This document shows, in pieces, positions 15,586-64,000 of a stretch of DNA of 64,000 nt. Under the pieces are notes generated by a model. That model had not been told where the DNA came from, searched no databases, and saw only the letters and a program-made list of their open reading frames with translations. The stretch's first letter is position 1, and the number at the start of each line of letters is the position of its first letter. Source of the stretch: an uncultured Planctomycetales bacterium (GTDB lineage Bacteria > 4484-113 > JAFGCY01); the NCBI GenBank assembly GCA_964609245.1, contig CAZSSB010000003.1:55854-119853 (forward strand), written 5' to 3'. The position numbers were made by a program, and so were the translations under genes.

Positions 15586-15699
15586 AGCTTAATTCTACCG
15601 GGCGTGTGCCGGTCAGCGTCTACAACGTGGCCGTCGGTCTTCAACGGCCCGGTGGCTTGCGGCCCTGTCCGGGCCCGGCCACAACTCGGTGCCAGCAGT

Positions 15700-44820: not shown

Positions 44821-45566
44821 CCAGGCGCGTGATCTTCAACGCCGATGACTATGGCCTCAGCCCGGGCGTCAGCGCCGGCATCCTGGCGGCGGCCGAGGGC
44901 GTTGTGGGGTCAACTACGGTTATGGCCAATCTCGTCTCGCAGCTGGAGGCGGACTTCCTGCGCCGCAGCGGCGTGTCCGTGGGCGCGCACCTGACGATCA
45001 CGGTCGGTCTGCCGCTGAGCGACGAGTACCCGGAGGAGCTGCGGGGTCCTTACGGGGGCTTCAACAAGGAACTGGCGCTGGACGCGGCCACCTGGCGGGA
45101 CGATGCGCGGCGCGAGGCGGTGGAGCGCGAATGGCGCGCGCAGCTGCGCCGCCTGCGTGAACTGGGCTTCGAACTCGATCATCTCGACAGCCACCACCAT
45201 GCCCACCTGCTGGGCCCGCTGCTGCCGATCGCCGTCCAGCTGGCGCGCGAGCGCGGTCTGGCGCTGAGGACCCGGCCCGCGAAGGTCAGTCCGGTGCGGC
45301 GGGCGGGCGTGCTAACCCCCGATCTGCTGATCGAGGGATATTTCGGTATAACAAATGTAGGGATGGATCATCTGCTGGCCCTGCTGGATGCGGCAGATGG
45401 CGACGTGGTTGAAGTGATGTGCCATCCGGGGCGCGTTGACGGGCTGCTGAAGCTGCGTTCAGGCTATGTGGCGGAACGGGAGGCTGAGTTGGACGTGCTC
45501 AGTGATCCAAGGCTGAAACAGGAGGTCAGGCAGCGAGGATGGATACTTTCCGGCTACCGGTGGTAA
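44817..45566 (+). CDS. ChbG/HpnK (YdjC) family deacetylase
   Basis: IFNADDYG, GAHL, HLDSHHHAH, EVMCHPG, REAELDVL. Confidence 0.92.
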   Translation: MTRRVIFNADDYGLSPGVSAGILAAAEGVVGSTTVMANLVSQLEADFLRRSGVSVGAHLTITVGLPLSDEYPEELRGPYGGFNKELALDAATWRDDARREAVEREWRAQLRRLRELGFELDHLDSHHHAHLLGPLLPIAVQLARERGLALRTRPAKVSPVRRAGVLTPDLLIEGYFGITNVGMDHLLALLDAADGDVVEVMCHPGRVDGLLKLRSGYVAEREAELDVLSDPRLKQEVRQRGWILSGYRW

Positions 45567-45583
45567 GACGGCTCGGGGGAGCC

Positions 45584-48500
45584 ATGGCGGCGGCGCTGGG
45601 GGCGCTGGTGCTGAATGCTTGCGGGGGCAGCGCCCATGATGCTACGGCGGTGCCGGTCGCGCAACCGACGGCGGGGCCCGTGCGGGTCTCGGCGCAGTGG
45701 CTGCGGCAGCAGCCGGGTCCGCGCCTGGGCGAGTACAGCTTTCACCTGCTGGACTCTGACGGCCGCGCGCTGAGCGACTGGTCGCGCGTGGGTCTGAGCG
45801 TCTCGGCGGGCGGCCAGGTTGGCCATTACGTAGTAGAGGCGGCCGAGCGGCCAACGGACGATATTTACCTCTATGTCACATACCCGGGCGCGGATGTCCA
45901 CGTTGGCGATGCGCGGCTGGCGAGCGGTCGCGGCGGTGAGTATGTCTTTCTCTCCGTGCCGGGCCGGATCCGCGACGTACTGGTGATCGGGATGGCGCGG
46001 ATCGGCGGCCGGCGAGCGGCGGCCCTGAAGCCCGGGCCGCTGGCGCGGATCAGCTTCGCCGCGGGCGGCGAGCAGGTCGTAAGGGCGGCCAGCCGCGTCA
46101 ACGAGGACCCGCGCAGCGCGGCGGTGTTCGGCGCCAGCGGCGGCGGGGACTGGTTGGTCGCCGACATCTGGTGGGAAGAGCGCAACATCGGCGACTACAA
46201 CAACAACGGCCTGGTGGAAGTGGCCGACATCACGCCGATCGGTGTCTACTTCGACCAGGAAGTGGCAGCCGCGGACGACCCGGCGCTGCTGGAAATCGTC
46301 GACGGCACCCTGGACGGGTTCGTCACGATCCACGACATCACGCCGATCGGCCAGAATTTCGACGCGCGTATCGACGGCTTCCGGCTGTACGCCGCCTATA
46401 CAGAAAACCCCGATCCCGAGGACTTCGAGCTGTTTCCATGGGAGGACTACTCAACCTGGCCGCGCCCGGAGCTCTATGACGCCACGGATGAGCTGGCGCG
46501 GCGCAAGCGCCTGCAGTACCGCGGAAACATGATTCCGATTGATGATCCGGCGGGCATCTGGACGGGAGGCAAGCTGAGCCTGCTGGTGCGTGCATTCGCC
46601 GACGATGGCGGCACGATCGAGGAAGGGCCGCCCAGCAACGCGGTCGAGCTGAACTACAGCGGCCTGCCCGTCAATCACGCGCCAATCTGGGTTGAACAGC
46701 CCGGTCTCACCGCAGCCATTGGCACCGGTGAAGGAATCCTGGTGCGTTGGGGGCAGGCCCTCGATCCGGACGGGGACGAGATCGAATACGTACTGCGCTA
46801 CATCGACGGCGGTCAGGCCATCGGCCTGCCGGGCACGGTGGTGCTGGTGATGCCGCCGGAGACGACTGCCGGAGGTCCACCCTACGAGTACTATGTCGAG
46901 GGGCTGACGCGGGGCGAGGAATACACGCTGCTGATGAAAGCCCGTGACGAGCTTGGGCTGGAGAGCAGCAATTCCGCCACCAGCCTGGTGCGCGTGCCGG
47001 CGCTGGGCGTCAGCGCGGATACCTGGCCCTACCACCGCTTCGATCCGGCGCGGACCGGCTGCAATGCGGAGTGCTTGCTTGAGGAACCTCTTTGTGAGGC
47101 GTGGACTGCGCCGCTCGACTGGCCGACCGCCACGGAAGCGCCCAACGAGCCGCTGATCAGCGCTGAAGGCTGGATCGGCGCGCCGACCGGAGATGGCCTG
47201 TTCAGGCGCTATCTGCTCGAGAGCGGCGCGGATCACTCCTTTGAGCATTTCTACACTGTCGATCGCTTTCGCGGTTCTCTCAGCGGTGGGTACATGGCGT
47301 ACGGCGAGCCCTCATCCGGACTGGTAGTTGAACAGCTATACGGCCCGATGTGGCTTTGGCCGGAGGTTGGCGAGCTGACGGGCGGCCCGTTGGTCCTAGG
47401 TGACCTGGTGTTCGCGGCGGGAGGCAGCGCCGTAGTCGGCGCGGAGATCTACTACGGTTCGGAGTGGTTGTTCGAACCCGGCGGGGATTCCCCGTACACA
47501 CTGTCCCCCGCCGCCGACGAGCAGCACCTCTACACCGTCCGCGACGATGGGCGCGTCGACAAGCTGGATCTGCTGACCGGTGACAACGCCGCGACCGGTG
47601 ACCTGGCGGCCATTCCCAGTGGCGACGCTGTTGCGCTGGACTCCGCGAGCGGCCGGCTGTACGTGGCGACCGAGGATGACTGGCTGGTGGAGCTGAGCGC
47701 GGATGACCTGAGCGTGCTCAATCGCTGGCCGGCGGGCGAGGACGACCACTCGATGACCAGCCCCTGCCTGGTGCTGCATAGCGATCCGCCGCTGGCCGTC
47801 GTCGGTCACGGACTCTACGGCATGATCGAAACGCCGGGCTTCCTGCATGCCATCAACCTGCTGACCGGTGATACGGAGTGGACGCGGGCGATCCGCTTTC
47901 CCTTCGTGCCCCAGCAGATCACCGCCGGGCAGTCACGTCTGTTTGTCGTGTCACGCAACGGCGGGCTGTTCGTGCTCGACTTCGCGGGCAACGTGCGCCA
48001 GGAGGTGGACTTGCAGGCGCCGATGCACTCATCCGCGGTGCTGGCCGCGGACCGGCTGGCGCTGGTCAGCACCGACAGCCTGCGCGTCTTCGAGGCGGCG
48101 GCCGACGAACCGCCGGTGTGGGTCGGGACCGAAGGGGTGCGCGAACTGACTACCGGCGACGGCAGTGTCACCGCGCACTGGGATCACGCCGTCGATGACA
48201 ACGGCGAGCCGGTTCACTACGCGCTCTACTATCGGGCGGGCGCTGCTCCCGTCTTCAGCCAGCCGCTGGGCGATACGCAGCTGATCACCGGTATCGAGGA
48301 CAACGGCTTCGGCCACTCATACATGATCGACGGCCTGGACAACGGCACGCGCTACTACGTGGCGGTGCGGGCATATGACGGCCGCTGGGACGATCTGCCC
48401 AACGTCGAGCAGAACACGAACGTGTTGGCCGCCACGCCGCCCTGGCAGCGCGAGCAGCTGGTGCTCGGCGGCGACCTGCCTGCCGGCGAGATTCTGTTTA

Positions 48501-49651
48501 TGCGCGGGGTGCTCGATCCGACCGGTGAGATCAACCTGGTATACAGCGACGCCGATGACGCACAGCTGATGCGCGTCTGGGGCGGTGCGGGCAGCTGGCA
48601 GTGGGAGCAGGTGATCGACGACACCAGCTGGCTGGTCGCGGCCCAGGCCTTCGATCTGGGCTGGAACACGACCGCCGACGCGCTGCTGATCGGGATGGCC
48701 AACACCAACTTCGTCGGGCACTCCGCCCTGCTGCTGCGGCTGCCCTCCGGGGCGTATGACCTGCGCAGCTTTGACGATACCGATCCGGGGCTCAATCCGC
48801 AGGTCTCGCTGGGCTACGGCGCCGAGGCGGCGCTGGCCTATACCGAGAACGCCGGCAGCGGTGTCGAGCGCCCCGTCGACTACTACCTGAAGCGCACGAT
48901 CGCGGGCGTCTGGCAACCGGTGGAGCCGCTGGACCAGACCAATCTCTCCGGCCGCGACCTGGATCTGGTGCTGTCGCCGGCGGACGATGCCTCGCCGTGG
49001 GTCGCCCTGCAGCGCGGCGGCGAGAGCACCCCCAACCGCTACACTCCGCAGGAAGGCGAGTGCGTGTACGCCCGGTGGGACAGCGGCGGATCAACCTGGA
49101 GCTTCGATCTGGTGGACGCCGGCGACAACGCACCGGACAGCGATTGCGGCAAGCGCGTCGTGCAGATGGTTGACGACGACGACCGTCCCCGGCTGGCCTA
49201 TCTCGACCTGAACGCCGATCCGGCGGACCCCAGCGGCCAGCTCAAGTACGCCTGGTACGACGCCGGCGACTGGTACATCGAGATCGTGGATAGCTTCCCG
49301 TTGCAGTTCAACTACGCCTCGGACCAGTTCATCTGGCCGGAGCTTGGTCTGGCGCTCTACGAGCCCGGCGGCGGCCAGCAGGCGCTGATCGCCCAGCTGC
49401 AGGTCACCACGGCCCGGACACTCAGTATGCCGCAGCGGGCGGTCCTGGAGGTCTGGGTGCGGCAGGGCGCCGACGACTGGCGGCGCGAGCAGCTGGCGGA
49501 CGAGGAGTGGATCTTCACCGAGGATCGGGCGCCCTGCGTGCTGCTCGTCACCCCCAACGGCAGCTGGCACGTCCTCTACGCCACCACCCATGACCAGCAG
49601 GTAGTGGACGGCGCCGATGCACTCGTGCACTACTGGCGGCCGGCGGCCTAG
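45584..49651 (+). CDS. Large surface lipoprotein: cohesin-like, dockerin-like, FN3, PQQ-type propeller, FN3, second propeller
   Basis: Lipobox VLNAC; [18 protein letters not shown]...[20 protein letters not shown]; NHAPIW...VRWGQALDPDG and PPVW...AHWDHAVDDNG FN3 units; WPYHRFDPARTG PQQ-like start. Confidence 0.8.
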   Translation: MAAALGALVLNACGGSAHDATAVPVAQPTAGPVRVSAQWLRQQPGPRLGEYSFHLLDSDGRALSDWSRVGLSVSAGGQVGHYVVEAAERPTDDIYLYVTYPGADVHVGDARLASGRGGEYVFLSVPGRIRDVLVIGMARIGGRRAAALKPGPLARISFAAGGEQVVRAASRVNEDPRSAAVFGASGGGDWLVADIWWEERNIGDYNNNGLVEVADITPIGVYFDQEVAAADDPALLEIVDGTLDGFVTIHDITPIGQNFDARIDGFRLYAAYTENPDPEDFELFPWEDYSTWPRPELYDATDELARRKRLQYRGNMIPIDDPAGIWTGGKLSLLVRAFADDGGTIEEGPPSNAVELNYSGLPVNHAPIWVEQPGLTAAIGTGEGILVRWGQALDPDGDEIEYVLRYIDGGQAIGLPGTVVLVMPPETTAGGPPYEYYVEGLTRGEEYTLLMKARDELGLESSNSATSLVRVPALGVSADTWPYHRFDPARTGCNAECLLEEPLCEAWTAPLDWPTATEAPNEPLISAEGWIGAPTGDGLFRRYLLESGADHSFEHFYTVDRFRGSLSGGYMAYGEPSSGLVVEQLYGPMWLWPEVGELTGGPLVLGDLVFAAGGSAVVGAEIYYGSEWLFEPGGDSPYTLSPAADEQHLYTVRDDGRVDKLDLLTGDNAATGDLAAIPSGDAVALDSASGRLYVATEDDWLVELSADDLSVLNRWPAGEDDHSMTSPCLVLHSDPPLAVVGHGLYGMIETPGFLHAINLLTGDTEWTRAIRFPFVPQQITAGQSRLFVVSRNGGLFVLDFAGNVRQEVDLQAPMHSSAVLAADRLALVSTDSLRVFEAAADEPPVWVGTEGVRELTTGDGSVTAHWDHAVDDNGEPVHYALYYRAGAAPVFSQPLGDTQLITGIEDNGFGHSYMIDGLDNGTRYYVAVRAYDGRWDDLPNVEQNTNVLAATPPWQREQLVLGGDLPAGEILFMRGVLDPTGEINLVYSDADDAQLMRVWGGAGSWQWEQVIDDTSWLVAAQAFDLGWNTTADALLIGMANTNFVGHSALLLRLPSGAYDLRSFDDTDPGLNPQVSLGYGAEAALAYTENAGSGVERPVDYYLKRTIAGVWQPVEPLDQTNLSGRDLDLVLSPADDASPWVALQRGGESTPNRYTPQEGECVYARWDSGGSTWSFDLVDAGDNAPDSDCGKRVVQMVDDDDRPRLAYLDLNADPADPSGQLKYAWYDAGDWYIEIVDSFPLQFNYASDQFIWPELGLALYEPGGGQQALIAQLQVTTARTLSMPQRAVLEVWVRQGADDWRREQLADEEWIFTEDRAPCVLLVTPNGSWHVLYATTHDQQVVDGADALVHYWRPAA

Positions 49652-49684
49652 CCTGGTCCGAGCGTCCGCGCGCGGTGCCGCCGG

Positions 49685-51391
49685 CTAGTTGACGTTAACT
49701 ACCACGGCATTGCTGACGCGCCGCTGGTTGTCGTAAAGCGTGACGTTGGCTGTCCGCGGATACTCGCAGCGCACGACCAGTTCCGCCCCGCCGGCGCCGG
49801 TGGTGTCGAGCACGCCGGCGAAGGTGTCGATCGCGTATGTTGCGGTGTCAGGGGTGGGCGTCGCGGTCCAGTTGCACCAACTGGTCAGATCCTGGACAAC
49901 CTCGTTGCCGTTGTCCAGCCCGTCCCAGTCGAAGGTGCCCTCGATCGCGAACTGCACGTCATCGCCGTCGTTGGCGGCGATCGGCCCGCTGCCGCCGCCG
50001 CTGCTGAGCGCCAGGTCCTGGATGCTGAGCAGCACGAAGCCCGCCGTTTGCGTCTTGGTGAAGTTGCCCGGGATCTGGGCGGTGACCTCGATCCTGCCGC
50101 GGTTGACGAAGGTCAGCAGCCCCTTGAGGTCGCTGGGATCGCCGCCCTCGGCGTTGCCGACCTTGGCCAGACCGCCGCCGTCGCTGACGTACCAGACCAG
50201 ATGCTCGCTGTCCTCGTAAGTGTTACCGGGATCCTCGACAATCTCCACGGTGGCGGTCAGCTGCAGTGACTCGGGCGCGAACGGCTCGGCGTTGCCGTCG
50301 ATGTCGTCCACCGACCACTCGCTGAGCAGCACGATGTAGTTGCCATCGCCGTCCGTCGGGAGGCCGGACGGCACGTTGATCGCCAGCACCTCGGTCGGCG
50401 TGAACGTCGGGTTCGCCGCCTCGATCAGCACGCCGTAGTCGCTGGGGTAGGCGCTCAGTGCGCCGTCGCGGTCGTAGGCGTGGACCCAGAAGCGCGTATC
50501 CTCGGCCAGCTCTGTGCTGCCGGTCCAGGTCCAGCGCAGTTCGCCATCGATGGTGGTCGGCGCGGTCGGGAACATCGCGACGCGGTCGAAGCGGACGAGT
50601 TCGGTCAGACTGCCGGCGCTCTCGCCGGTCATGATCGCGTAGCCGCCCAGCGTGACGTCGAGCTGCTGGCTGATGACCGTGATGTCCGAAACACCCACCT
50701 CGCCGTCGCGGTTGTAGTCGGCATCGCGTGCCTGCTTGTCCGCGTCGCCGGTCGCGGCCGGCGTGGCGCCGAACTGCTGGCCGATCTGGGTGTAGTCGCT
50801 GACCGTCACCTGCCCGTCGTTACTGCCGTCGGCGACCAGCCGCTCGACCCAGGTCAACTGCGGGTAATCGTCTTCAGTCAGGTCGCCGCTGAGCGAGGAA
50901 TCGATGTGGTTGTAGACGCCATCCGGACCCCGCAGGACCTGCTTGGTCACCTCGGAGGCGCCGGCGGCGAACCGCAGGCGGCACAGCTCCTGGGTGCCCG
51001 ATACGCCCTCGCGCTCGCCGAAGCGTGGCAGCAGCCAGCCGACCTCGACCACGCCCTGGTCGGGCCGGTCGATGCACAGCACCATCCCGTCCTCCAGCCG
51101 CTCGGCCGCGGTCTCCCCGGCCGCGAAGTGCAGCGCCGCGGGATCGTAGGCGACCCGGGCGTAGAGCACCTTCGCGTTGACGAGCTCGGTCGCCGAGAGG
51201 GTCAGCTCCGTGCTCTCGCCGGTCAGCTCCAGCCCGCCGACGCCGTCCGCGATGCTGTGCTCACGGTCGAGCTGCGCACTCAGACGCGGGGCGTCCAGGG
51301 TCTGGTTCTCGTTCAGCGTGTCGGCGCAGGCCGACAGCGCCAGAGCGGCCAGGCCGCTCACCAGCACGGTAATCGCCAGGTTCTTCAGCAT
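49685..51391 (-). CDS. Surface lipoprotein: cohesin-like + dockerin-like + Ig-like domains
   Basis: Lipobox LSAC; VLYARVAYDP...ELCRLRFAAG cohesin-like segment; ADGSNDGQVTVSD...ADYNRDGEVGVSD duplicated Ca-binding loops. Confidence 0.75.
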   Translation of the reverse strand: MLKNLAITVLVSGLAALALSACADTLNENQTLDAPRLSAQLDREHSIADGVGGLELTGESTELTLSATELVNAKVLYARVAYDPAALHFAAGETAAERLEDGMVLCIDRPDQGVVEVGWLLPRFGEREGVSGTQELCRLRFAAGASEVTKQVLRGPDGVYNHIDSSLSGDLTEDDYPQLTWVERLVADGSNDGQVTVSDYTQIGQQFGATPAATGDADKQARDADYNRDGEVGVSDITVISQQLDVTLGGYAIMTGESAGSLTELVRFDRVAMFPTAPTTIDGELRWTWTGSTELAEDTRFWVHAYDRDGALSAYPSDYGVLIEAANPTFTPTEVLAINVPSGLPTDGDGNYIVLLSEWSVDDIDGNAEPFAPESLQLTATVEIVEDPGNTYEDSEHLVWYVSDGGGLAKVGNAEGGDPSDLKGLLTFVNRGRIEVTAQIPGNFTKTQTAGFVLLSIQDLALSSGGGSGPIAANDGDDVQFAIEGTFDWDGLDNGNEVVQDLTSWCNWTATPTPDTATYAIDTFAGVLDTTGAGGAELVVRCEYPRTANVTLYDNQRRVSNAVVVNVN

Positions 51392-51470
51392 GATGCACCC
51401 GGTAGTTGATATCTGGATTGATGACAGCGAATAATCCTATTAACTATACCCGATGGCCGCCCTAGCGCGC

Positions 51471-52748
51471 CTAGCTGCCCGGCGTCGGGGCCAGCAGACC
51501 CAGCACGGCCTCCACCGCCCGCTGGGCGGCTCCGCGGTTGGCCAGCGTAGCTTCGCGCGCGGCGGCGCCGATGCGGGCGGCGGCCGCCGGCTGGCCAAGC
51601 AGGCGGGTCAATTCGGCGGCAAGCGCTTCGCTATCCCGGACCTCGACGATGCCGCCAACCTGCCTGAGCAGTTCCAGCTGGGCGGTGATCGAGAAGGTGT
51701 GCGGCCCGACGAGCACCGGCTTGCCCAGCACGGTGGCCTCCAGGATGTTGTGGCCGCCGACTTGGCGGCTGAAGGTACCGCCCATCACCACCACGTCTGC
51801 CAGCCGGTAAGTGTCCGTCAGCACGCCGTAGCGGTCCACCACCAGCACGTCCCAGGGCTCGGCTGCCGGCAGGTCCTTCAGCAGGACGGCGCCGAGTCCC
51901 TGCTGGGCGGCCAGCTTCGCCACCTCCGCGGCGCGCTCGACGTGGCGGGGGGCGACAATCAGGCGCAGCCGACCGCCGGCCAGCGAAGCCGGAGCGCCGC
52001 CCAGGGTCCTCAGCAGCAGTTCCTCTTCCCCAGGGTGCGTGCTGCCCGCCACGATCACGCGCTCATCGCCGAGGCCGAAGTGCACCCGGGCCGCGCCCAG
52101 CAACTCTCCGTCCCAGTCCTTGAGCTCGAAGTCGAACTTGGTGTTGCCGCTGACGGTCAGCTTGTCAGGTCTCAGCCCGAACTTCAGGAAGTTGACGCGC
52201 TGCTGCTCGCTCTGGCAGACGACCAGGTCCACCAGTTCGTAGAGCCGCTGGTGCAGGGCGGCGCGCCAGCCGTGCTTGTTATGCAGGTAGATTCGCGCGT
52301 TGACCAGCGCCACCGGAATCTTGCGCTGGCGGCAGCCGGTCATGATGTTGGGCCACAGCTCGGCCTCGGTGGTGACGTAGAGGTCGGGCTTCAGCCGGTC
52401 CAGATAGCGCCGGACGATGAATGGCAGGTCGATCAGCGGGAAGTAGGCCAGCAGCGCCAGCTGGTCGCCCAGCTTCTCCCTGGCCATCGTCTGGCCGCTC
52501 TCGGTGGTGGTCAGCAGCGCTATCTGCGCGTCCGGCCGCTGCCGGAGCAGTTCGGTGACGAAGGGGGTGATCGCCACCACCTCGCCGGCGCTGACGGCGT
52601 TGATCAGGACGCGCGGACCGGCGGCCCTGGGGTCATAGCGGCCCAGTTCGAAGCGCCCCAGCCGCCGGCCGATGGTGCCGCGAAAGGGCGGATAGAGGTA
52701 GAGGGCCGGCCAGCCAAGTGTGATCAGCGTGTTCCACAGCGGCAGCAC
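51471..52748 (-). CDS. kdtA: 3-deoxy-D-manno-octulosonic acid transferase
   Basis: INAVSAGEV, TTTTESG, ELWPN, LVNARI, SGNTKFD, AGSTHPGEE, PRHVER, GGHNILE. GTG 52748 is 7 nt after TATAAT. Confidence 0.95.
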   Translation of the reverse strand: MLPLWNTLITLGWPALYLYPPFRGTIGRRLGRFELGRYDPRAAGPRVLINAVSAGEVVAITPFVTELLRQRPDAQIALLTTTESGQTMAREKLGDQLALLAYFPLIDLPFIVRRYLDRLKPDLYVTTEAELWPNIMTGCRQRKIPVALVNARIYLHNKHGWRAALHQRLYELVDLVVCQSEQQRVNFLKFGLRPDKLTVSGNTKFDFELKDWDGELLGAARVHFGLGDERVIVAGSTHPGEEELLLRTLGGAPASLAGGRLRLIVAPRHVERAAEVAKLAAQQGLGAVLLKDLPAAEPWDVLVVDRYGVLTDTYRLADVVVMGGTFSRQVGGHNILEATVLGKPVLVGPHTFSITAQLELLRQVGGIVEVRDSEALAAELTRLLGQPAAAARIGAAAREATLANRGAAQRAVEAVLGLLAPTPGS

Positions 52749-52821
52749 GGGCTCGATTATAGCCCCGTGCAGCAACCTTGGGCCGCGACCTGCGGTGCCC
52801 GGGCGCGAAATAGCGGCTTGC

Positions 52822-53526
52822 TCAGAATCCCACCATGCTCACGCGGCGGCAGTCGTTGCTGCGCGCGATCAGCGCAATCTGGGCGTGGCGGCCCATTGCC
52901 ACCTGCTGAGCCTGGGACTCGGCGGCGCGCCAGGCTGCGACCACCTTGCGCTCCTCGGCTTCGGTCCGGCCCAGCACGGAGTACGCCAGCATCTCGCGCA
53001 CGCTGACGCGGAAGGGCAGCAGCGGCTGCGTGATGGTGTAAGGCGTGCCGTTCAGTTCCGGCACCCGCTGCATCACGTCGCGCAGCCAGTCGTTGGCCTC
53101 GGTGTAGCTGACGCCGATAATCCCCAGCTGCAAGAAGTAGCTATCGTCCGAGCCCTGCCGGTAGTCCACGATCAGGCTGTGACCCCCATGGTCCGCCAGC
53201 GCCTCGGCGTGGTTGGCGAAGACGCCGACCCAGTGCGGATAGGCGGCCGGCACGAAGCTGTCCGGCGCCTGGATGGTGATCAGCTGGCCGTCGTCCCAGC
53301 CGATGACGGGCGCCCCGCTGGCCCAGCCTCCCAGCGCCAGCAGGCCGGTGATGAACGCCAGCACCTTGATCGCAGTGCTCACGCGGCGGCGCCTGGGCCG
53401 GCGCTCGAGGCTGCGCTCCAGCCTGAGGCGGGCGATCACGGGATCGGCCTGGCCGGTCAGGCGGTCGAACACGCTCTGGATCAGCTGTTCGGCGTTGTTA
53501 TCCGGTCTGGTGTTGAACTCACTCAT
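52822..53526 (-). CDS. Putative transmembrane anti-sigma factor
   Basis: Overlaps the ECF sigma stop; ~50 aa cytoplasmic N-terminus, one TM, periplasmic domain. Confidence 0.6.
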   Translation of the reverse strand: MSEFNTRPDNNAEQLIQSVFDRLTGQADPVIARLRLERSLERRPRRRRVSTAIKVLAFITGLLALGGWASGAPVIGWDDGQLITIQAPDSFVPAAYPHWVGVFANHAEALADHGGHSLIVDYRQGSDDSYFLQLGIIGVSYTEANDWLRDVMQRVPELNGTPYTITQPLLPFRVSVREMLAYSVLGRTEAEERKVVAAWRAAESQAQQVAMGRHAQIALIARSNDCRRVSMVGF

Positions 53527-54196
53527 GGTTGGTCACTCCCGGTGCCGGGATGTTAAGAAAGGACAGCGCGCCCTCGGGCAGCATCGCCCTCAGTTTGCGC
53601 CGCGCACGGTAGGCCAGCTGAATCACCGCCCGCTGGCTGATGCGCTGGATGCGCGCCACTTCCTCCGGAGTGAATCCGGCGGGCCCCAGCAGCAGAATCA
53701 CGTCGCGCTCACGCGCGCTGAGCCGTCCCAGCAGCTCCCTGACCAGAGTAAGTTGGTAGCCGAGCTCGGCGGGATCGCCGCTTACGCTCGCTGTGGCTTC
53801 CAGAATACTGTGCGAACTGCCCAGCTCGGCTACCAACTTGAACGGTCGCAACCGCCAGCGGTTGCGAAGGTTCCTGAAGCGGTTCAGGAGGATTGCAAAG
53901 AACCACTCGCGGAAGCGTTCGCGGTTCCGGAGTGTGTCAAACCGCGAGTAGGCTGAAAGCACCGCATCCTGGACCAGGTCCTCGCCGTCCATCAGGCTTC
54001 CACTGATCGACTGCGCATAGGCCAGGGCTCTGGGGTAGACGGGCATCAGCAGGCTGAGAAACTCATCCCGGTGGTTGCTCTCCAGAACTGCGCCGCCAGC
54101 TGTCCTCGAACCTCCATCCTCGGATCGCTGGCCGTGCGCCGGCTTCTCGCCCCGCCGAGTGCCCTTCTTCCCTGCGGATGTGTGCTTATCGCCCAC
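53519..54196 (-). CDS. ECF-type sigma-70 factor
   Basis: DGEDLVQDAVLSAY...FREWFFAILLNRFRN (region 2); LSARERDVILL...FTPEEVA (region 4). Confidence 0.9.
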   Translation of the reverse strand: MGDKHTSAGKKGTRRGEKPAHGQRSEDGGSRTAGGAVLESNHRDEFLSLLMPVYPRALAYAQSISGSLMDGEDLVQDAVLSAYSRFDTLRNRERFREWFFAILLNRFRNLRNRWRLRPFKLVAELGSSHSILEATASVSGDPAELGYQLTLVRELLGRLSARERDVILLLGPAGFTPEEVARIQRISQRAVIQLAYRARRKLRAMLPEGALSFLNIPAPGVTNHE

Positions 54197-54340
54197 TACT
54201 TACGGTGACAATCCTTCAAGTTGGTAGTAACGCCGGGTCACAGTAATTGTAACGAACACTCTGACTGCCGGGCTAAACATCTGTTCCAGTGCCGCGCCGG
54301 ACACAGCTGCCGGTCCTCTGCCAAGAGCTGGCGATGTGCC

Positions 54341-54390
54341 GATAATACGTTATCATTTCAACAGATGGATCTCGCGGGGAGGTGGGCGCG
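54341..54390 (+). repeat. Promoter/RBS block duplicated at 58023-58072
   Basis: GATAATxCGxTATCATTTCAxCAGxTGGAxCTCGCGGGGAGGTGGGCGCG precedes both ATG 54391 and ATG 58073. Confidence 0.85.
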
Positions 54391-57300
54391 ATGCGCGCTT
54401 ACGCTGTGCTGATGACGTTGACCCGCGCAGCCGTGTTGATGCTCGTAATTGCTGGTGCTACTGGTTGCGGAGGCGGTAGGAGTGGTGCGGTGGACATGGC
54501 GGCCGAACAGCTGGCCGCTGCGCCGCTGAAAGAGAGTCCCGGGCTGGATGATGCGACAGAAGGCATGCGTGCCGAGTCACTGGCTGAAGCGCTTCAGCAG
54601 GTGGAGTCCGCGCAGGCTCCGGCGGGCGTTGATCCGGCGCTGTACGCCGAGCTGCAGGCCGAGCTGGTCCGGGTGATCAGAGAGGCGGCGGAGAAGGGCG
54701 CCTCGATTCCGCCCTCGGGCGAGAAGAACGAGGTGACGGACCTGCTGCTGATGGGCGATGACGGCGAGGGCTACACGCTGGAGTGGAGCTACTGCAACGT
54801 CGGGGATTACAACCTCGACGGCCTGGTGGGGGTCAGCGATCTGACGCCGGTGGGGATGTACTTCGAGTGCGCCACGGGCGATCCGGACTGGCCCGACGGC
54901 CGGATGGCGGACGGCAACGAGGATGGCATGGTGACGGTGGCGGACATCACGCCGATCGGGCAGAACTACGATGCGTTCATCGCCGGCTTCAACATCTACG
55001 GAGGCAGCTCGGTCACCGGGCCCTGGACGCTGGTCGATGCGCTGGACCGGCCGGCGCCGCCGGAGGATGGCTGGTTTCTGGTCAGCTACGACCTCGGTGC
55101 GGGGGGCCACGATGTTTACCGCGTGGTGCCCTACGACGGTGACGGCGTAGAGGGCCAGGGCAGCACGGCCAGCGCGATCTGCGCCAACGGCGCGCAGGTG
55201 ACCTTTGGCGACTACTTCGAGGATGCCAGCGCCACCATCGGTGCCGCTGGCGGTGAGTTGCACGGCCTGGCCGGCTCGCCGCTGGAAGGGGTGGAGGTGC
55301 ACTTCCCGGAGGGCGCCCTGCCGGAGGACACGCTGGTCACGCTGGGCTACAACGACGGCTCGATCACGCCGGTCGAGGGCGAGTTCCACGGCCCGCTGCT
55401 GTCACTTACGGCGGGCGACCTGACCTCGTTTGAGGAGCCGGTGGAGATCGTGATGCCGTTCGACGGCGATGAGGAGACCGTGCCCGTGCCGTTCTGCGTC
55501 TACGAGGATGGCAGCCTGGGACTGATGCAGCTGGTGGACGTGGACTACGAAGCGGACACGATGACGCTGATGACCATGCATCCGACCTCACGCGATGCAC
55601 ACGCTACATCTGATGTCTCGCCCGTGGACGATGCTTTTCTGGGCGCGTTAATTGGCGCTATCTACGAGCGCTTCGAGAGCGCAAATGTAGTCGTACCGCA
55701 CGTGACATCGTTCAGGCCGGAGCGGGATGGATTCTCTTTCAGTGAGAATGCCAGCAGCACAACGGCAAAGGGCATGTGCGCCTTTGCTCTTTGGTACTGG
55801 ACTCACCATCGCAATGACGGCCGGTTTTACGGTCGGTTCTCCGAGTACAGCCAGGAACCGCCCGCGGGCGGTGATAACGGATTCGTGCCTAAGACAGTTG
55901 AAGAGATAATCGCTTCGCGGGCCACGATATCAGTGGTGCAGCAATGGGACAAGTACGAGGCCAACTGCGCCGCAGAGCATGATGCTGGTCCCACTGCCAA
56001 TTGTGCGATCGCTCGTTGTGCGATACTGAACACGCGACATCCCGTCTGGACACAGATTACTCTCCTTGGGGAGGATGTGTACGGGCAGCATTGCCTGATA
56101 TACGGCTTCGATGACAGCCACTACTTCTTCTATCTGCCTGACAGTCCTGGCGAAGAGAGGTGGTGCTACTCCTACCGTGCGACCCCATGGTATGTTGCAG
56201 GTCCTGACTCCCTTGCCATGACTGAGTCCTTCGAGAACATCCTCACTGACGCTGAGCACAACTTCGACTACGGCTACGGCAGAGCGGTGATCAATATCGA
56301 TTCACACTACGAGGGTGAGGTAGTGAACCACGACAAGGCAACTCTCGCCGGCGTGGTCGAAAGCGGCGACTTGCTGGTTGACAAGCTGATCATCATCAAC
56401 GAGAGCATGGGACACCAGATGTACAACCTGGTGCTGGATGAAACCGGTGTGTTCTCGCAGGAAATCCAATTGGGTGTCGGCACAAACAACCTCGACTTCA
56501 AGTGCTGGGGGAAAGCTGAGGACAGCCAGAGGGTGCCGATACCGTGGGTGCTTGACATCCGCGAGGATGAAGATGTGTACAAGCGCCTTTACCATGGAAT
56601 CAAGCTAGAGTGCATGATCAACCCGATTGAGATCACGATCATTAACTACTTCGACGAGGAGGAGGTAACGGACGAGAAGGTCTTCCTTGAGGGCCAGCTT
56701 GATGAGGGAGCGTATGATGTGACACGCCTGCTGGCTTTTAGCTTCTCCGAGACTAGGATTCCCCTGCCCGGTCGCCTGGTAACAATTGAACCGGACAACA
56801 GCTTCACTCTGGGCGTACCGTTGGACCCCGGTGAGAATGAGATCAAGTTCCAGACGTCGGCGCAGCTTGACACAGGCAAAACCGTGATTGTGGAAAACAA
56901 CTACCAAAACGAGCCGTTCACCATCATCCGTACGGTCGCGCCAGCCACGCTCACGATCACCTCGCACACCAGCGGCGATACGGTGCAGGACCGCAGCGTT
57001 CTGTTGAAAGGAACCTACAGCGAAGGCGGCGCGCCGCTGGACAGGCTGGCGGTACTGGTCAACTACGAGGATGAGCACAGTGTGGACCTGGACGGTAGCG
57101 GGGGATTCGAGATCAGCATCCCGCTGTGCTTCGGCGACAACTACTTGCTGTTCAGGCTGCTCAGCGAGAACAGTGAAGGCCAGCTGATCGAAGTGCCCAG
57201 CAACATGAAGGATGTGCTCTTCACATTGGATGCCAACTTCGAGCGCTACGTTATCTGGGCGGAGCTGACCTGGCCGTTTGTCGACGAATACATGATCTAC

Positions 57301-57744
57301 AACCCGGATACGCTTAACGAGCCTGATGGTAAGAGCGATCACAACTTCGATCTGATGGTGTACGAGCCAGGCGGACGTACCTATGGGCCGGGGGGGAGCA
57401 ACGACCTGAAGGGCTTTGTCGGCCAGGCCGGCACGTATCCCAATTATCACCCGAAGTACTTCATTCGTGATGATGACGGTGTTGAGTATGGTTCAGAGTA
57501 CCGCTTCCGCGTGTACTACCAGTGGGCCGCGTACATCTCCTACTACCCGAGCTCACCCGGTACGGTTGAGTTGCCGATGGACTTCACGCTGACGGTTACC
57601 GTCAACGAAGGCCAACCCCATGAGTACACAGAGGTGTTCACAGGAACGCTGACTTATCCGTTGGGAACCAGTGAGGACTGGGTGATCGACGGAACTGGGC
57701 CGCAGATCTCGGAGTACTTCTCGGTGACGCCGACTCTGCAGTAG
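54391..57744 (+). CDS. Surface lipoprotein: dockerin-in-FN3, ZU5-like, degenerate papain-like domain, Ig repeats, YfaP-like C-terminus
   Basis: GGAGG RBS; lipobox ATGC; [16 protein letters not shown]...ADGNEDGMVTVADITP; VHFPEGALPEDTLVTL; AELTW...FDLMVYEPGG. Confidence 0.8.
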   Translation: MRAYAVLMTLTRAAVLMLVIAGATGCGGGRSGAVDMAAEQLAAAPLKESPGLDDATEGMRAESLAEALQQVESAQAPAGVDPALYAELQAELVRVIREAAEKGASIPPSGEKNEVTDLLLMGDDGEGYTLEWSYCNVGDYNLDGLVGVSDLTPVGMYFECATGDPDWPDGRMADGNEDGMVTVADITPIGQNYDAFIAGFNIYGGSSVTGPWTLVDALDRPAPPEDGWFLVSYDLGAGGHDVYRVVPYDGDGVEGQGSTASAICANGAQVTFGDYFEDASATIGAAGGELHGLAGSPLEGVEVHFPEGALPEDTLVTLGYNDGSITPVEGEFHGPLLSLTAGDLTSFEEPVEIVMPFDGDEETVPVPFCVYEDGSLGLMQLVDVDYEADTMTLMTMHPTSRDAHATSDVSPVDDAFLGALIGAIYERFESANVVVPHVTSFRPERDGFSFSENASSTTAKGMCAFALWYWTHHRNDGRFYGRFSEYSQEPPAGGDNGFVPKTVEEIIASRATISVVQQWDKYEANCAAEHDAGPTANCAIARCAILNTRHPVWTQITLLGEDVYGQHCLIYGFDDSHYFFYLPDSPGEERWCYSYRATPWYVAGPDSLAMTESFENILTDAEHNFDYGYGRAVINIDSHYEGEVVNHDKATLAGVVESGDLLVDKLIIINESMGHQMYNLVLDETGVFSQEIQLGVGTNNLDFKCWGKAEDSQRVPIPWVLDIREDEDVYKRLYHGIKLECMINPIEITIINYFDEEEVTDEKVFLEGQLDEGAYDVTRLLAFSFSETRIPLPGRLVTIEPDNSFTLGVPLDPGENEIKFQTSAQLDTGKTVIVENNYQNEPFTIIRTVAPATLTITSHTSGDTVQDRSVLLKGTYSEGGAPLDRLAVLVNYEDEHSVDLDGSGGFEISIPLCFGDNYLLFRLLSENSEGQLIEVPSNMKDVLFTLDANFERYVIWAELTWPFVDEYMIYNPDTLNEPDGKSDHNFDLMVYEPGGRTYGPGGSNDLKGFVGQAGTYPNYHPKYFIRDDDGVEYGSEYRFRVYYQWAAYISYYPSSPGTVELPMDFTLTVTVNEGQPHEYTEVFTGTLTYPLGTSEDWVIDGTGPQISEYFSVTPTLQ

Positions 57745-57816
57745 GTTCTCTTCTTCACGTAAAGCGGGGCTGGTGCGGGACAACAGCTTAGCGGCTCAGT
57801 TCGCGGGGCCGACTGC

Positions 57817-58010
57817 CTAGTCCGTCTTGCCCCGGACCGCGCGGCCCAGCACCTGGCGGGCGATGACCATGCGCTGAATCTCGCTGGTGCCCTCGCCGAT
57901 CGTGCACAGCTTGGCGTCGCGCCACATCCGCTCCACCTCGTACTCCCGCGTATAGCCGTAGCCGTCGTGCAGCTGCACCGCCAGTTCGGTGATGCGCATC
58001 GCCACCTCGC
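57817..58010 (-). pseudogene. Displaced 3' fragment (~195 bp) of the acyl-CoA dehydrogenase gene
   Basis: Encodes [63 protein letters not shown], nearly identical to the C-terminus of the gene ending at 63186. Confidence 0.92.
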
Positions 58011-58072
58011 CGGCGAAACATAGATAATGCGCTATCATTTCAGCAGGTGGAACTCGCGGGGAGGTGGGCGCG

Positions 58073-61000
58073 ATGCGCGCTTACGCTGGGCTGATGACGT
58101 TAACCCGCGCAGCCGTGTTAATGCTCGTGATTGCTGGTGCTACTGGTTGCGGAGGTGGCAGGAGTGGTGCGGTGGACATGACGGCTGAGCCGATGGCTGC
58201 TGCGCCGCTGATAGAGAGTCTTGGGCAGGATGATGCAACGCCCGGGATGCGTGCCGAATCGCTGGCTGAAGCCATCGCGCAGGTGGAGACCGCACCGGTG
58301 CCGGCGGAAGTCGACCCGGCGCTGTTCGCCGAGCTCCAGGCCGAGCTTGTCCGCGTGATCAGGGAAGCGGCGGAGAAGGGCGCCTCGATTCCGCCGTCGG
58401 GTGAGCACAATCGTGTCACCGACCTGGCGCTGGTCGAGTCCGCCGATGGCTGGGAGCTGAGCTGGAGCTACTTGAACACCGGCGACTACAACCTCGACGG
58501 TCTGGTGGGGGTCAGTGATCTGACGCCGGTGGGGGTGCACTTCGATGCGGAGCAGGGCGATCCTGCCTGGCCCCAGGCACAGTGCGCCGATGGCAACCAT
58601 GACGGCATGATTACGGTCGCGGACATCACGCCGATCGGCCAGAACTTCGGCGCCTTTGTGGCCGGCTACAACGTCTATGGATCGGACGAAGCGGATGGCC
58701 CCTGGACGGAAATCGGGTACAGCCAGCGCCCCGCCGCCTTTACCGCGGGCTCGCTGGCCTGCAGCTTTGAACTGGCCGCACGCGAGCATGAATACTACCG
58801 GGTCGAGGCGGTCGACGCGCAGGGCTCGGCCGGCGATCCCAGCGATGAGGTGCTTGCTCCTGGCGAACCGGCGCAGGTCAGCCTGGGGACGGACACAATC
58901 CTTACAAGCGAGGTGGTTCCCGACGGCGGCTCGCTGCTGCATGGTCCGGCAGGCTCGCCGCTGGAGGGAATGGAGTTCTACTTCCCCTCGGGTGTGATCG
59001 GCGAGAACATGGAGGTCGGGCTGGGCTACAACGACGGCTCGATCGCCCCCGTCGACGGAGTGTTCCAGCCACCGATCATCGTGATTGACTGCGGCGATGT
59101 CGACGTCCTGCCGATGCCGCTGGAAATCCGCCTGCCGTTCCCCGCCGATCAGCCGGTTGTGCCCGTGCTGTATGACATCGGAGAAGACGGCATTCTGCTG
59201 CCGATCGCTTATCAGGAGATCAACTACGAAACGGGCATGGCTGTCTACCGGACGATGCACGCCTCGCGAAAGGCCCTGATACTGGGCCGCCTGCATTTTG
59301 CCTCCACTGCCGATATCGGCCAGTGGGACACGGGGTTCCGCCCGCGCAAGGACGGCTTCTTCATTGTCAACAAGGGCAGCATGGTCTATCCGAAGGGCGA
59401 GTGCATGGGGATGACGGCGTTCAGCATGTGGTACTACCGCCTGAAGCACTACTGGAATCACGGCTTTTTGTATCTCAGCTTCCGGCAGCTCCTGGAGCCA
59501 GGCCCTGAGATCGTACAGGACGTGATTGCGACGCGCGCCCACACCTCGATCCACACCCAGTACAATTCGCTGTACCGCCCGCTGGCGCACACCCGCTTCC
59601 AGCTGCCGGCACCATACCGCTTCGCGATGATCCGCACCGCGCTGCTCAACAGCGGCGGGCCAATCACGATGACGGCGCAGGATGAGGCGGTAACCTGCGG
59701 CCATTCAATGCTGGTCTGTCGCATGAGTACGTACAGCCAGTTCCCGAACGCAGTGATTCTGGGTGTCTACGATCCCAACAAGCCCGGCAGGCTGTCAGAG
59801 GTTGGCTACTACTGCGACGAGCCGGTTAACTGGGATCTGGGCAAATTCGCGCCATATGCCAGCGGCGTGGTGTATGACGAGACCGAAATCGTGTTCGCCG
59901 ACTTCATACTGGAGGGGGAAGCATCGCTGCGCTTCAGGGAACACTTCGCATCGATCCTCGAGGATGCCCTGGATGATCCGCCATTCGGCGGCAGCAACCA
60001 GGTAACGATTCGGATCAGCGAACCAGCGGACGGATCGGCGCTGGATGTTCGGGATGTGGTTATCCGCGGCCAGGCGCTGAGTGGCGAAGTCCTGGTCGAT
60101 AGCCTGGGAATCTCAGCCATACCTGAGACGCGGTTTCACGCCAATACCGCGTTTGATCAACTGCCAAACCAGAGCAAGCTGGTCATGCCGGACGCCGAGG
60201 GCTATTTCGCGGCAGCGCTGACACTGCTGCCGGGGCCGAACACGATTGGGTTCGCGCCGTTCGGCTATGACGCGGATGAGAACCACCGGCTGCTGCCGGT
60301 GCGCATGCATCCCGACGATCTGGAGTTGGACGAAGGTTTCCCGGTGAACAATGGCTACGATCTTGAGGCTCCCTTCGGCCTCGTGGAGATCGGTATCAAC
60401 GGACTGAGTTCCGGACAGCAGGTTCCGCAAGCTCCGCTTGCGCTTTCCGGTACCTTGACATGTGGGGATACGCCAGCCGACAGGCTGGAAATGCTGAACG
60501 GCGCGGACAGGTACGAGGCAATCCTGACACAGACTGGTGATCTCACTGCCAGTTTCGCACTGAGCGGAGTGAACATCGGGTCCGGAGTGAATAACCTGCT
60601 GTTCAAAGCCTGGGCTGAGGATGTCTGCCTCTACGAATACTACGAGATGCCGACGACGTACAGCGAGCACCCCTTCGTGCTCATCGGAGCGGAAGCACCG
60701 CCTCCCGGCCAGGTGACGATCGAGGTGGAGTGGGGCAATGGTGCGGATTGCGGCATCGTGCTTTCCTGTCCGTGGATGGATGGCGCGTATCACTACGTCA
60801 GCAAACAGAACCCGGGCAGCATTGGCAGCGTTCCGTACGCGCTGTTCGAGGATTCGAGCGTCTATGGCGCTGGCGATGTGGTGTGGCCCGGCAACGGGCA
60901 CTACACGATCACTATCGCGCATCTGGAGCCCGGTGGCTACGCGCTTAAGGAAGATGTCTGGCACACCACGCGCAAGACCACTTTGGTGAAGGTCAGCAAA

Positions 61001-61141
61001 GGCGGCAGCCTGGAGCACACGATCATCCCGACCAGCGATCCCAAGCCCCCCGACGGCGAGTACAGCAACGACTGGGTGGTGTTGAGGATCGACGGAGAAA
61101 CGGGTGAGATCACGGTGGTAAACGAGTATCAGACATTCTGA
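58073..61141 (+). CDS. Surface lipoprotein, paralog of 54391..57744, with a putative papain-like Cys-His-Asp/Asn domain
   Basis: Near-identical signal peptide and N-terminus; dockerin-like pair; ZU5-like segment; [10 protein letters not shown]...GECMGM...CGHSML...YDPNKPG. Confidence 0.8.
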
Positions 61142-61337
61142 GGGGGGCTGCTGATGCAGCCGGCCTTCTGATCGGCTGGCGGGATGGATCAACTGCCGGC
61201 AGGAAATCGATCCGGCGGTAGAGGAATCGAGCCTGCCAGGCACAAGGCGGACTGCACCGTACTGCCAGCGTCCCTGCCTGGAGATCCCAGCCGTGCAGCC
61301 ACCGGGGCTTGTACAGCTCCAGTGCAAGCGCTACACG

Positions 61338-61388
61338 TCAGTCCGTTTTGCCCTTGACCGCGCGGCCCGGCACCTGGCGGGCGATCAC
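61338..61388 (-). pseudogene. Second, shorter displaced 3' fragment of the acyl-CoA dehydrogenase gene
   Basis: Encodes VIARQVPGRAVKGKTD*; core ACCGCGCGGCCCxGCACCTGGCGGGCGATxAC is shared with 57817 and 63186. Confidence 0.85.
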
Positions 61389-61491
61389 GGTGCTGTGTTT
61401 CGATCCGACCGCGAGGGCATTACGATGGTACAATATCAGCGACGACGCTGTAGGGGCGTTATCGGTTGGCTGTGCAGCCGTGGAGGTTGTG

Positions 61492-63168: not shown

Positions 63169-63185
63169 TTCGGCTTTCTGGACGG

Positions 63186-64000
63186 CTAGTCTACCTTGCC
63201 TCTAACCGCGCGGCCCAGCACCTGGCGGGCGATCACCATCCGCTGGATCTCGCTGGTGCCCTCGCCGATGGTGCACAGCTTGGCGTCGCGCCACATCCGC
63301 TCCACCTCGTACTCGCGGGTATAGCCATAGCCGCCGTGCAGCTGGACCGCCAGCTCCGTGATGCGCATCGCCACCTCGCTGGCATACAGCTTGGCCATCG
63401 CGGCCTCCTTGGTGATGTGCATCCCCTGGTCCTTCATCCACGCCGCGCGGTAGACCATCAGCCGCGCCGCCTCCAGCTCGGTGGCCATGTTGGCGATGAA
63501 GTGCTGGATCGGCTCGTGCTGGGCCAGCAGCTTGTCAAAGGTCTTGCGCTCCCTGACGTAGGCCACGGCGCGCTCGTAGGCGCCCTGGGCCAGACCCAGC
63601 GCCATCGCGCCGATACCGATCCGCCCGCCCTCCAGTGTCTGCATGAAGGCGCCGAAACCGGTGTTCTCCTCGCCGAGCAGGTTCTCAACCGGCACGCGGA
63701 CGTTGTCGAGGAAGATCTGCGACGTGCTGGAGCCGCGCAGGCCCAGCTTGTCCTCGACCTTGGGCACGCTGACGCCCTCGCTCTGCATGTCGATGATCAG
63801 CGCGCTGATGCCGTGGCTGCGGCGTGCCGAGGGATCGGTCTTGACGGTGGCGACCATCGTCCGGGCCTCGCGGCCGTTGGTGATCCACTGCTTGGCGCCA
63901 TTGACCACGTAGTGGTCACCCTCGCGGATCGCAGTGGTGCGGCAATTGCCGGCGTCGCTGCCCGCCTCGGGCTCGCTGAGGCCGAAGCAGCCGATATGCT
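63186..64000 (-). CDS. Acyl-CoA dehydrogenase (5' part beyond window end)
   Basis: [64 protein letters not shown]. Confidence 0.96.

Follow-up and report, generated by a model that had tools for sequence, protein, structure and literature searches.

High-affinity modular protein assembly is usually exemplified by cohesin–dockerin pairs, which have found wide use in synthetic biology and whose workings are known almost entirely from the cellulosomes of Gram-positive anaerobes. The canonical cohesin is a flattened beta jelly-roll of nine strands in about 140 amino acids (aa), which binds the dockerin via its 8-3-6-5 sheet. Among the closest described systems to the one considered here are the type II pairs, in which an X-module with its dockerin (XDoc) binds a cohesin (A. 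cellulolyticus ScaA XDoc with ScaB Coh3, 4U3S/4WI0; C. thermocellum CipA XDoc with SdbA, 2B59) and which anchor cellulosomes to the cell surface, and the type I pairs (C. thermocellum Xyn10B dockerin with CipA Coh2, 1OHZ; the C. cellulolyticum CipC cohesin, 1G1K/2VN5). Cohesins and dockerins are also used outside cellulose degradation, in amylosomes and mucinolysomes (PMC9198524, PMC12997984). The DNA analysed here, referred to as the window, is a stretch of 64,000 nucleotides (nt) from an uncultured Planctomycetales bacterium (contig CAZSSB010000003.1, positions 55,854 to 119,853). It contains four lipoprotein genes, A to D, each encoding a pair of dockerin-like calcium loops set within a predicted fibronectin type III (Fn3)-like domain close to the lipid anchor (coordinates in Table 1). 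We think it rather probable that these proteins belong to a family of lipoproteins with a docking cassette, which take part in a non-cellulosomal cohesin–dockerin network at the cell envelope.

A first-pass annotation of the sequence had described a duplicated calcium loop in the four lipoproteins, and a pattern search finds the loops where it had placed them, two DxNxDGxVxxxD loops in each protein and eight in total. Six of the eight conform to the strict pattern D.[ND].[DN]G.[VILM]xxxD and in the remaining two, loop position 3 is Ser or Thr. Positions D1, D5/G6 and D12 of the loop are 96–100% conserved over the 76 paralogous modules (host domain plus insert) of the genome. Pfam Dockerin_1, applied to single sequences, gives 20.1 bits for B and 15.1 bits for C against a cut-off of 22.9, and it matches all 15 sequences of the B family (B and its 14 orthologs) with a best E of 1.3e-5. 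When a profile of the B orthologs is searched against the PDB, the matches include 4wi0_B (E 3.4e-8) and 4u3s_B (1.2e-7), both the XDoc of A. cellulolyticus ScaA, 4fl4_A (2e-6) and CelD (6.5e-5). In the AlphaFold2 (AF2) model of B, which has a mean predicted local distance difference test score (pLDDT) of 81, the insert consists of helices at residues 197–206, 216–224 and 235–243, with both outer helices beginning inside the calcium loops. Homology of the inserts of A–D to dockerins (PF00404) is supported by these profile matches. Within the helices the signature D-[LI]-T-P-[LI]-G-x-x-[FYW] is kept in both repeats in about 80% of the paralogs. In C. thermocellum some 70 type I dockerins have one common cohesin specificity, and by analogy the conserved helix signature fits many carriers with one specificity here as well.

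The loop pair had been placed between strands B and C of an Fn3 domain in C and D, and there the strands do align, in agreement with the model of B. The nesting had been confined to these two proteins, but A and B are likewise nested in an Fn3-like host, with the cohesin-like domain as an additional feature upstream. In the AF2 model of B, strands at 168–171 and 177–182 precede the insert and strands at 247–255, 263–269, 286–290, 299–307 and 321–323 follow it. This order, A-B / C-C'-E-F-G, is in the model that of an Fn3 domain with the dockerin in place of the B–C loop. The segments YTLEWSY, GFNIY and YRVVPYD and their equivalents are in register across A–D and 22 paralogs (26 modules), and coincide with the modelled strands 177–182, 247–255 and 299–307 of B. 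The Trp of strand B, just before the insert, is 96% conserved in the paralog alignment, G-Y-x-V-Y of strand C comes directly after the insert and Y-x-V-x-P-x-D...G-x-x-S of strands F–G lies near the end of the domain; to judge from the alignment, these would be the classic Fn3 signatures of strands B, C and F–G. Model and alignment together give the seven-strand order of Fn3, with the Trp of strand B and the Tyr of strands C and F. Pfam fn3 has no match on the module of A–D. Once the insert is spliced out, the host matches nothing in the PDB but two Fn3 domains, at non-significant values (1k85, E 0.11; FN3con, E 0.29), and comparison of the spliced profile with the ordinary Fn3 domain of A itself is in register and also non-significant (hhalign probability 3%). 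Strand B occurs in a WxE and a WxY variant; the idea that these mark proteins with a cohesin-like domain was rejected, as the two do not track each other.

A and B had also been credited with a cohesin-like domain before the loops, and this stands with the reservation that the domain is reduced and obtains no Pfam Cohesin score. Foldseek with the whole 568-aa model of B returned multi-immunoglobulin (Ig) chains only, and the N-terminal domain was therefore re-predicted alone (pLDDT 85.5; predicted template modelling score, pTM, 0.80). Cohesins then make up 45 of the top 50 PDB matches (E 0.011–0.2, TM 0.40–0.55), among them cohesins of type I, cohesins of type II and the cohesin-like module of C. 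perfringens. The link from B to cohesins in sequence is transitive. A profile of the B domain finds the equivalent domains of paralogs at E 1e-9 to 1e-6, extending to about 30 reading frames after iteration, and the set covers every Pfam Cohesin match of the genome but the best, which is on contig C1. The top five PDB matches of a 28-paralog profile are in turn all cohesins (1g1k/2vn5 at E 1.2e-3, then 4uyp, 3l8q and 2xdh), and Pfam Cohesin, the sole recurring Pfam family there, is found in 9 of the 28 domains (best E 2.4e-6). For A, a seven-ortholog profile aligns with the 28-paralog alignment over 133 columns (hhalign probability 97.2%, E 3e-11), and A alone scores 12 bits with the hidden Markov model (HMM) of the family. 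From profiles and model we conclude that the N-terminal domains of A and B are probably reduced and diverged cohesin-like domains, with eight strands in about 105 aa, that of A appearing to be a very diverged member of the family.

The genome-wide count proposed in the first-pass annotation was made with a module HMM built from A–D, which finds 76 near-complete modules in 70 reading frames, together with a few ordinary C-terminal dockerins. Cohesin-like domains occur in 30 reading frames, 25 of which also have the module, and most cohesin-like domains are thus on the same chain as a dockerin. Those without a module include single-cohesin lipoproteins of 182, 195 and 271 aa and a CAP-domain protein; two of the small lipoprotein cohesins lie at 24479–25063 of contig C9 and 65233–65778 of contig C13. 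A cohesin-like domain lies at most 60 residues upstream of the module in 23 of the 76 cases; the modules of C and D are among the two thirds with none in their chain. Across 24 species genomes of the phylum, 19–75 module matches are found in 23 and 5–38 cohesin-like matches in all 24, the modules being 2–6 fold the commoner. Among 1.84 billion representative proteins (clusters at 50% identity) there are 801 module matches at E <=1e-30. The full module is also present at 25 of 26 genome loci with the back-translated motif DITPIGQNF, which are labelled unclassified bacterium, UBP7 or UBP7_A, Planctomycetales and, in one case, Armatimonadia. Taken together, these searches indicate that A–D are part of a large paralogous lipoprotein family across one uncultured diderm phylum.

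Some single copies are of interest in themselves. The module copy at 44182–44670 of contig C15 (minus strand) and one copy in a relative (G007) contain an in-frame TGA, which could mark a pseudogene or a selenocysteine (Sec) codon. At 140334–142337 of contig C1 (plus strand) a 668-aa secreted protein without a dockerin has a C-terminal cohesin above the Pfam cut-off (29.3 bits) and an Asp-rich stretch resembling thrombospondin type 3 repeats. On contig C57 (11103–12116, minus strand) a cohesin-like domain is combined with a CAP/PR-1 domain, recognised by eye, again without a dockerin.

All four proteins begin with a signal peptide and a lipobox Cys, in the sequences LNAC (A), LSAC (B) and ATGC (C and D). 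Cys22 of B is invariant across the 15 B-family sequences, and at least 47 of the 83 reading frames of the genome matched by the module HMM satisfy a strict lipobox rule. The genome encodes Lgt, LspA and an Omp85 protein, and the window a Kdo transferase; together with the lipoboxes of A–D, these therefore point to lipoproteins of a diderm with lipopolysaccharide.

What follows the cassette is variable. Propellers, Ig domains and peptidase-like domains had been proposed earlier as passengers. The ordinary Fn3 domain of A is flanked by a PQQ/BamB-like propeller region (precomputed PF13360, with a weak BamB-like TIGR03300 match), and the whole model of B has Foldseek matches to LigA and cadherin Ig chains, with a weak Big_2 match in one ortholog. 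A peptidase-like passenger of C and D is not supported, as searches of Pfam, NCBIfam and PDB sequences gave no match to one; their passengers, of about 800 aa, match no known family in these databases beyond one sandwich resembling Glucodextran_B. The passengers of A, C and D have no PDB sequence match, and in NCBIfam the weak BamB-like match is the only one. A homolog search with the passenger of C retrieved C itself and nothing else. Among 55 other module proteins Pfam identifies PKD domains in 20, Fn3 in six, PQQ propellers in four, CotH in two, and subtilase, CAP and GHL15 in one each; no canonical cellulase or hemicellulase is among them, so that the earlier remark that no glycoside hydrolase is linked to the loops holds for the whole genome, the one GHL15 match apart. 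Cohesin-like domains are essentially one per protein, with a weak second match in two reading frames, and a search of the genome with the cohesin-like profile found no multi-cohesin scaffoldin. With neither cellulases nor such a scaffoldin, this is therefore not a cellulosome.

The arrangement suggests the following mechanism. Next to the lipid anchor would stand a docking cassette, an Fn3-like sandwich whose B–C loop is replaced by a complete dockerin of two calcium-binding loop–helix repeats and a linker helix, preceded in roughly one family member in three, A and B among them, by a reduced cohesin-like sandwich and followed by variable passengers such as the putative PQQ-like propeller and Fn3 of A or the Ig-like domains of B. 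Ca2+ would fold the dockerin, and the Fn3 host would brace it as the X-module braces a type II dockerin. The dockerin could then plug into cohesin-like sockets on the small lipoprotein cohesins or on sister proteins such as A and B, which carry both socket and plug and would therefore be able to form chains. Binding proteins would in this way be held together non-covalently at the cell envelope, as a network or as a set of complexes, and no enzyme complex for cellulose would result. A surface network is plausible on this evidence, and lipoproteins of the A/B type probably clip surface proteins together, with no part in cellulose breakdown. A more far-reaching version is possible, if doubtful: some 70 lipoproteins per genome with one universal Fn3-nested dockerin might self-assemble into a calcium-dependent, daisy-chained coat with PKD, propeller and Ig heads, a functional analogue of an S-layer or adhesin lattice that evolved outside Firmicutes and is unrelated to polysaccharide degradation.

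Several observations weigh against a docking network. All of A–D fall below the Dockerin_1 cut-off, A and D having no match and D on its own no Pfam match of any kind, and Pfam Cohesin matches neither A nor B nor any of the 15 B-family sequences. Membership of the host in Fn3 is non-significant by sequence, at the values given above, and the nesting was modelled for B, with A, C and D assigned by alignment to it. The Foldseek evidence for a cohesin fold is weak in its E values and TM scores, with root mean square deviations of 5–10 A, and the modelled domain of B falls short of the nine strands and 140 aa of a canonical cohesin; its face for binding may be gone. Identity of the cohesin-like domains to that of B is 14–25%, against very uniform dockerins, a poor fit with a single interface common to all. 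The TP[IL]G residues conserved in the helices could equally pack onto the host Fn3. Lastly, plug and socket would both be lipid-anchored, which clouds the geometry of intermolecular binding.

Several of these points lead to the main rival, which we regard as unlikely: the nested dockerin may be a structural calcium clamp that stiffens or stabilises the anchor-proximal stalk, or may bind a non-protein envelope ligand, the cohesin-like domains then being Ig-like spacers derived from cohesins. Near-invariance of TP[IL]G in both repeats across the paralogs is what a surface for packing within the molecule would show, the cohesin-like domain has been truncated and has diverged, and the excess of modules over cohesin-like domains throughout the phylum would follow readily. 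Many non-cellulosomal dockerins are, in the 2009 account of Peer et al. in FEMS Microbiol Lett, reportedly without a known partner, which also speaks for a clamp. An excess of dockerins over cohesins is, however, normal in cellulosomes too, and dockerins that serve a common cohesin type in many proteins are as a rule uniform. Every genome of the phylum moreover has both modules and cohesin-like domains, 25 of the 30 reading frames with a cohesin-like domain encode a module as well, and there are lipoproteins dedicated to a single cohesin, all of which argues against a clamp.

It seems quite improbable that in proteins of the A/B type the cohesin-like domain binds the dockerin of its own chain, as an intramolecular latch giving a rigid or auto-inhibited base and no network. 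The short distance between the two domains in 23 of the 76 modules would allow this, as would the short, low-confidence linker (aa 144–167 in the AF2 model) that joins the domains of B, and intramolecular clasps stabilising dockerins are known (PMC3821032). A latch is less likely because the same conserved dockerin is kept in the two thirds of modules that have no cohesin-like domain on their own chain, and because the pTM of 0.45 for the whole chain of B gives no confident fixed arrangement of the domains; stand-alone cohesin lipoproteins also argue against it. The idea that the loops are generic EF-hand pairs, as in calmodulin-like calcium sensors, or chance motifs unrelated to dockerins is very hard to credit and was rejected, since, although Pfam EF-hand models weakly match 4–6 of the 15 B-family sequences (best E 6.5e-4 to 0.02) and calmodulins do appear in the PDB list of the B-ortholog profile, they do so at E 0.008 or worse, more than five orders of magnitude behind the dockerins, Dockerin_1 matches the entire B family, the model of B has a helix after each loop and none before it, as in the F-hand of dockerins and not in a helix-loop-helix, and six strict loops are observed where 0.008 are expected from the amino acid composition of A–D.

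Table 1. The four lipoprotein genes and their assigned or predicted domains, in window positions
Feature	Position	Strand	Details	Basis
Gene A	45539..49651	+	1370-aa lipoprotein; lipobox Cys28 at 45620-45622	Open reading frame list
A, divergent cohesin-like beta domain	45710..46111	+	aa 58-191	hhalign to paralog family
A, Fn3-like host with nested dockerin	46163..46645	+	aa 209-369	Module HMM E 5.8e-36; in register with B, C, D
A, dockerin insert	46190..46360	+	aa 218-274; Ca loops aa 219-230, 255-266 (nt 46193, 46301)	Pattern search and alignment
A, ordinary Fn3 in passenger	48155..48385	+	aa 873-949	Pfam fn3 E 1.1e-9
Gene B	49685..51391	-	568-aa lipoprotein; lipobox Cys22 at 51326-51328	Open reading frame list
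B, reduced cohesin-like beta-sandwich	50963..51280	-	aa 38-143, 8 strands	AF2 and Foldseek
B, Fn3-like host with nested dockerin	50423..50890	-	aa 168-323	AF2 strand order, block pLDDT 72-91
B, dockerin insert	50660..50833	-	aa 187-244; Ca loops aa 188-199, 225-236 (nt 50830-50684)	
B, C-terminal Ig-like beta-sandwiches	49688..50404	-	aa 330-568	AF2, all-beta
Gene C	54382..57744	+	1120-aa lipoprotein, ATG at 54391; lipobox Cys29 at 54466-54468	Open reading frame list
C, Fn3-like host with nested dockerin	54733..55167	+	aa 118-262	Module HMM E 7.8e-47; alignment
C, dockerin insert	54802..54969	+	aa 141-196; Ca loops aa 142-153, 177-188 (nt 54805, 54910)	Pattern search
C, passenger beta-sandwich	56632..56862	+	aa 751-827	Pfam Glucodextran_B E 1.5e-7
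Gene D	58064..61141	+	1025-aa lipoprotein, ATG at 58073; lipobox Cys29 at 58148-58150	
D, Fn3-like host with nested dockerin	58412..58852	+	aa 117-263	Module HMM E 8.5e-53; alignment
D, dockerin insert	58481..58648	+	aa 140-195; Ca loops aa 141-152, 176-187 (nt 58484, 58589)	Pattern search

The source genome is a metagenome-assembled genome (MAG) of 3.28 Mb in 114 contigs, 88% complete. Genomes of the phylum are of 1.5–4 Mb with 65% GC, and public records of relatives, for instance CP060262.1, are labelled UBP7 or UBP7_A. The marine UBP7 of one review (Ca. Bimafiota), with genomes of 0.8–1.4 Mb, does not match them. Orthologs of gene A (n=6, 29–53% identity in the query region) and of gene B (n=14, 37–87% identity) come from MAGs. 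The public call of gene A (1355 aa) starts late, at 45584, and the ATG at 45539 adds an Arg-rich n-region that is seen in the orthologs. That of gene C (1084 aa) also starts late and leaves out the lipobox signal peptide (54382–54500).

D is a tandem paralog of C, with 39% identity across about 900 aa. Families of DNA repeats 3679–3682 nt apart run through this part of the window (54341–63383), and after C and D alike comes a duplicate of the 3' end of the convergent acyl-CoA dehydrogenase gene: 57817–58014 is 91% identical to 63186–63383, and 61340–61393 is a further 54-nt copy. These repeats look like the footprints of successive segmental duplications beside the dehydrogenase gene. Between the lipobox and the module of C (54540–54760, aa ~55–125), and in the same part of D, lies a conserved segment of about 70 aa, helical-looking from its sequence, which is common to at least 17 paralogs of a cohesin-less subfamily and which may be a stand-in for the cohesin-like domain. 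After D, a third lipoprotein gene (61309–63168, plus strand) lacks a docking cassette and is matched by neither Pfam nor NCBIfam. Its passenger is similar to those of the module-bearing paralogs at 15629–17284 of contig C55 and 549–2804 of contig C49, so that one and the same passenger occurs both with the plug and without it. Between B and C (51471–54196, minus strand) are the genes of the Kdo transferase, a 234-aa protein that could be an anti-sigma factor and an extracytoplasmic function (ECF) sigma factor, which is divergent from C and could be its regulator.

Full-text literature searches found no paper on a nested dockerin or on a link between UBP7 and dockerins. The system departs from its nearest known counterparts in its nested topology, in carriers of a diderm that are lipid-anchored at the N terminus, in a reduced cohesin, in copy number and in lacking enzymes. 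A dockerin spliced into the loop of another domain would mean that the fold tolerates being an insert, and the module has expanded to about 2% of the reading frames in small genomes across a whole uncultured phylum, with no carbohydrate-active enzymes attached, unlike in cellulosomes. If the binding is true, the cassette would represent a new surface-assembly architecture, a compact and pre-braced dockerin for protein engineering and, for a phylum represented by metagenomes only, an initial insight into its cell biology.

Of the known systems, the type II XDoc provide the best sequence matches of the B-family profile, with an alignment that runs from the last strand of the X-module into the dockerin, and type II cohesins are among the top Foldseek matches of the N-terminal domain of B. 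In both cases an adjoining Ig-like beta-sandwich would brace the dockerin, as is predicted here from the model, and the role would be attachment at the envelope rather than recruitment of enzymes. The X-module, however, stands in series before its dockerin, whereas here the dockerin interrupts the sandwich between strands 2 and 3. The cassette is C-terminal in the type II proteins and N-terminal here; their carriers are secreted scaffoldins of Firmicutes, in contrast to the N-terminally lipidated proteins of a diderm, and the multi-cohesin scaffoldin and cellulases of that setting are missing here.

With the type I pairs the proteins of this family share the two 22-residue repeats, each a DxNxDGxxxxxD loop and a helix, the internal two-fold symmetry and the presence of many carriers with one conserved type of dockerin, and in the PDB no sequence matches the cohesin-like family better than the type I cohesin of CipC (E 1.2e-3). 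The recognition positions of clostridial type I dockerins are Ser-Thr / Lys-Arg, and these are replaced here by the helix signature TP[IL]G.[NH][FY]. The cohesin-like domain differs from type I cohesins in its eight strands in about 105 aa, and the passengers are binding modules and not glycoside hydrolases. Outside cellulosomes, where Peer et al. are said to have surveyed cohesin and dockerin modules in 2009, the C. perfringens cohesin-like module 2JH2, which has FIVAR-dockerin partners, and the Archaeoglobus fulgidus cohesin 2XDH are among the matches found here, and there, as in A and B, cohesin and dockerin can share one polypeptide. Such systems are present in a few copies per genome, or serve in the assembly of enzymes, whereas here there are 20–75 module lipoproteins per genome of 1.5–4 Mb, always with the dockerin nested in an Fn3-like host.

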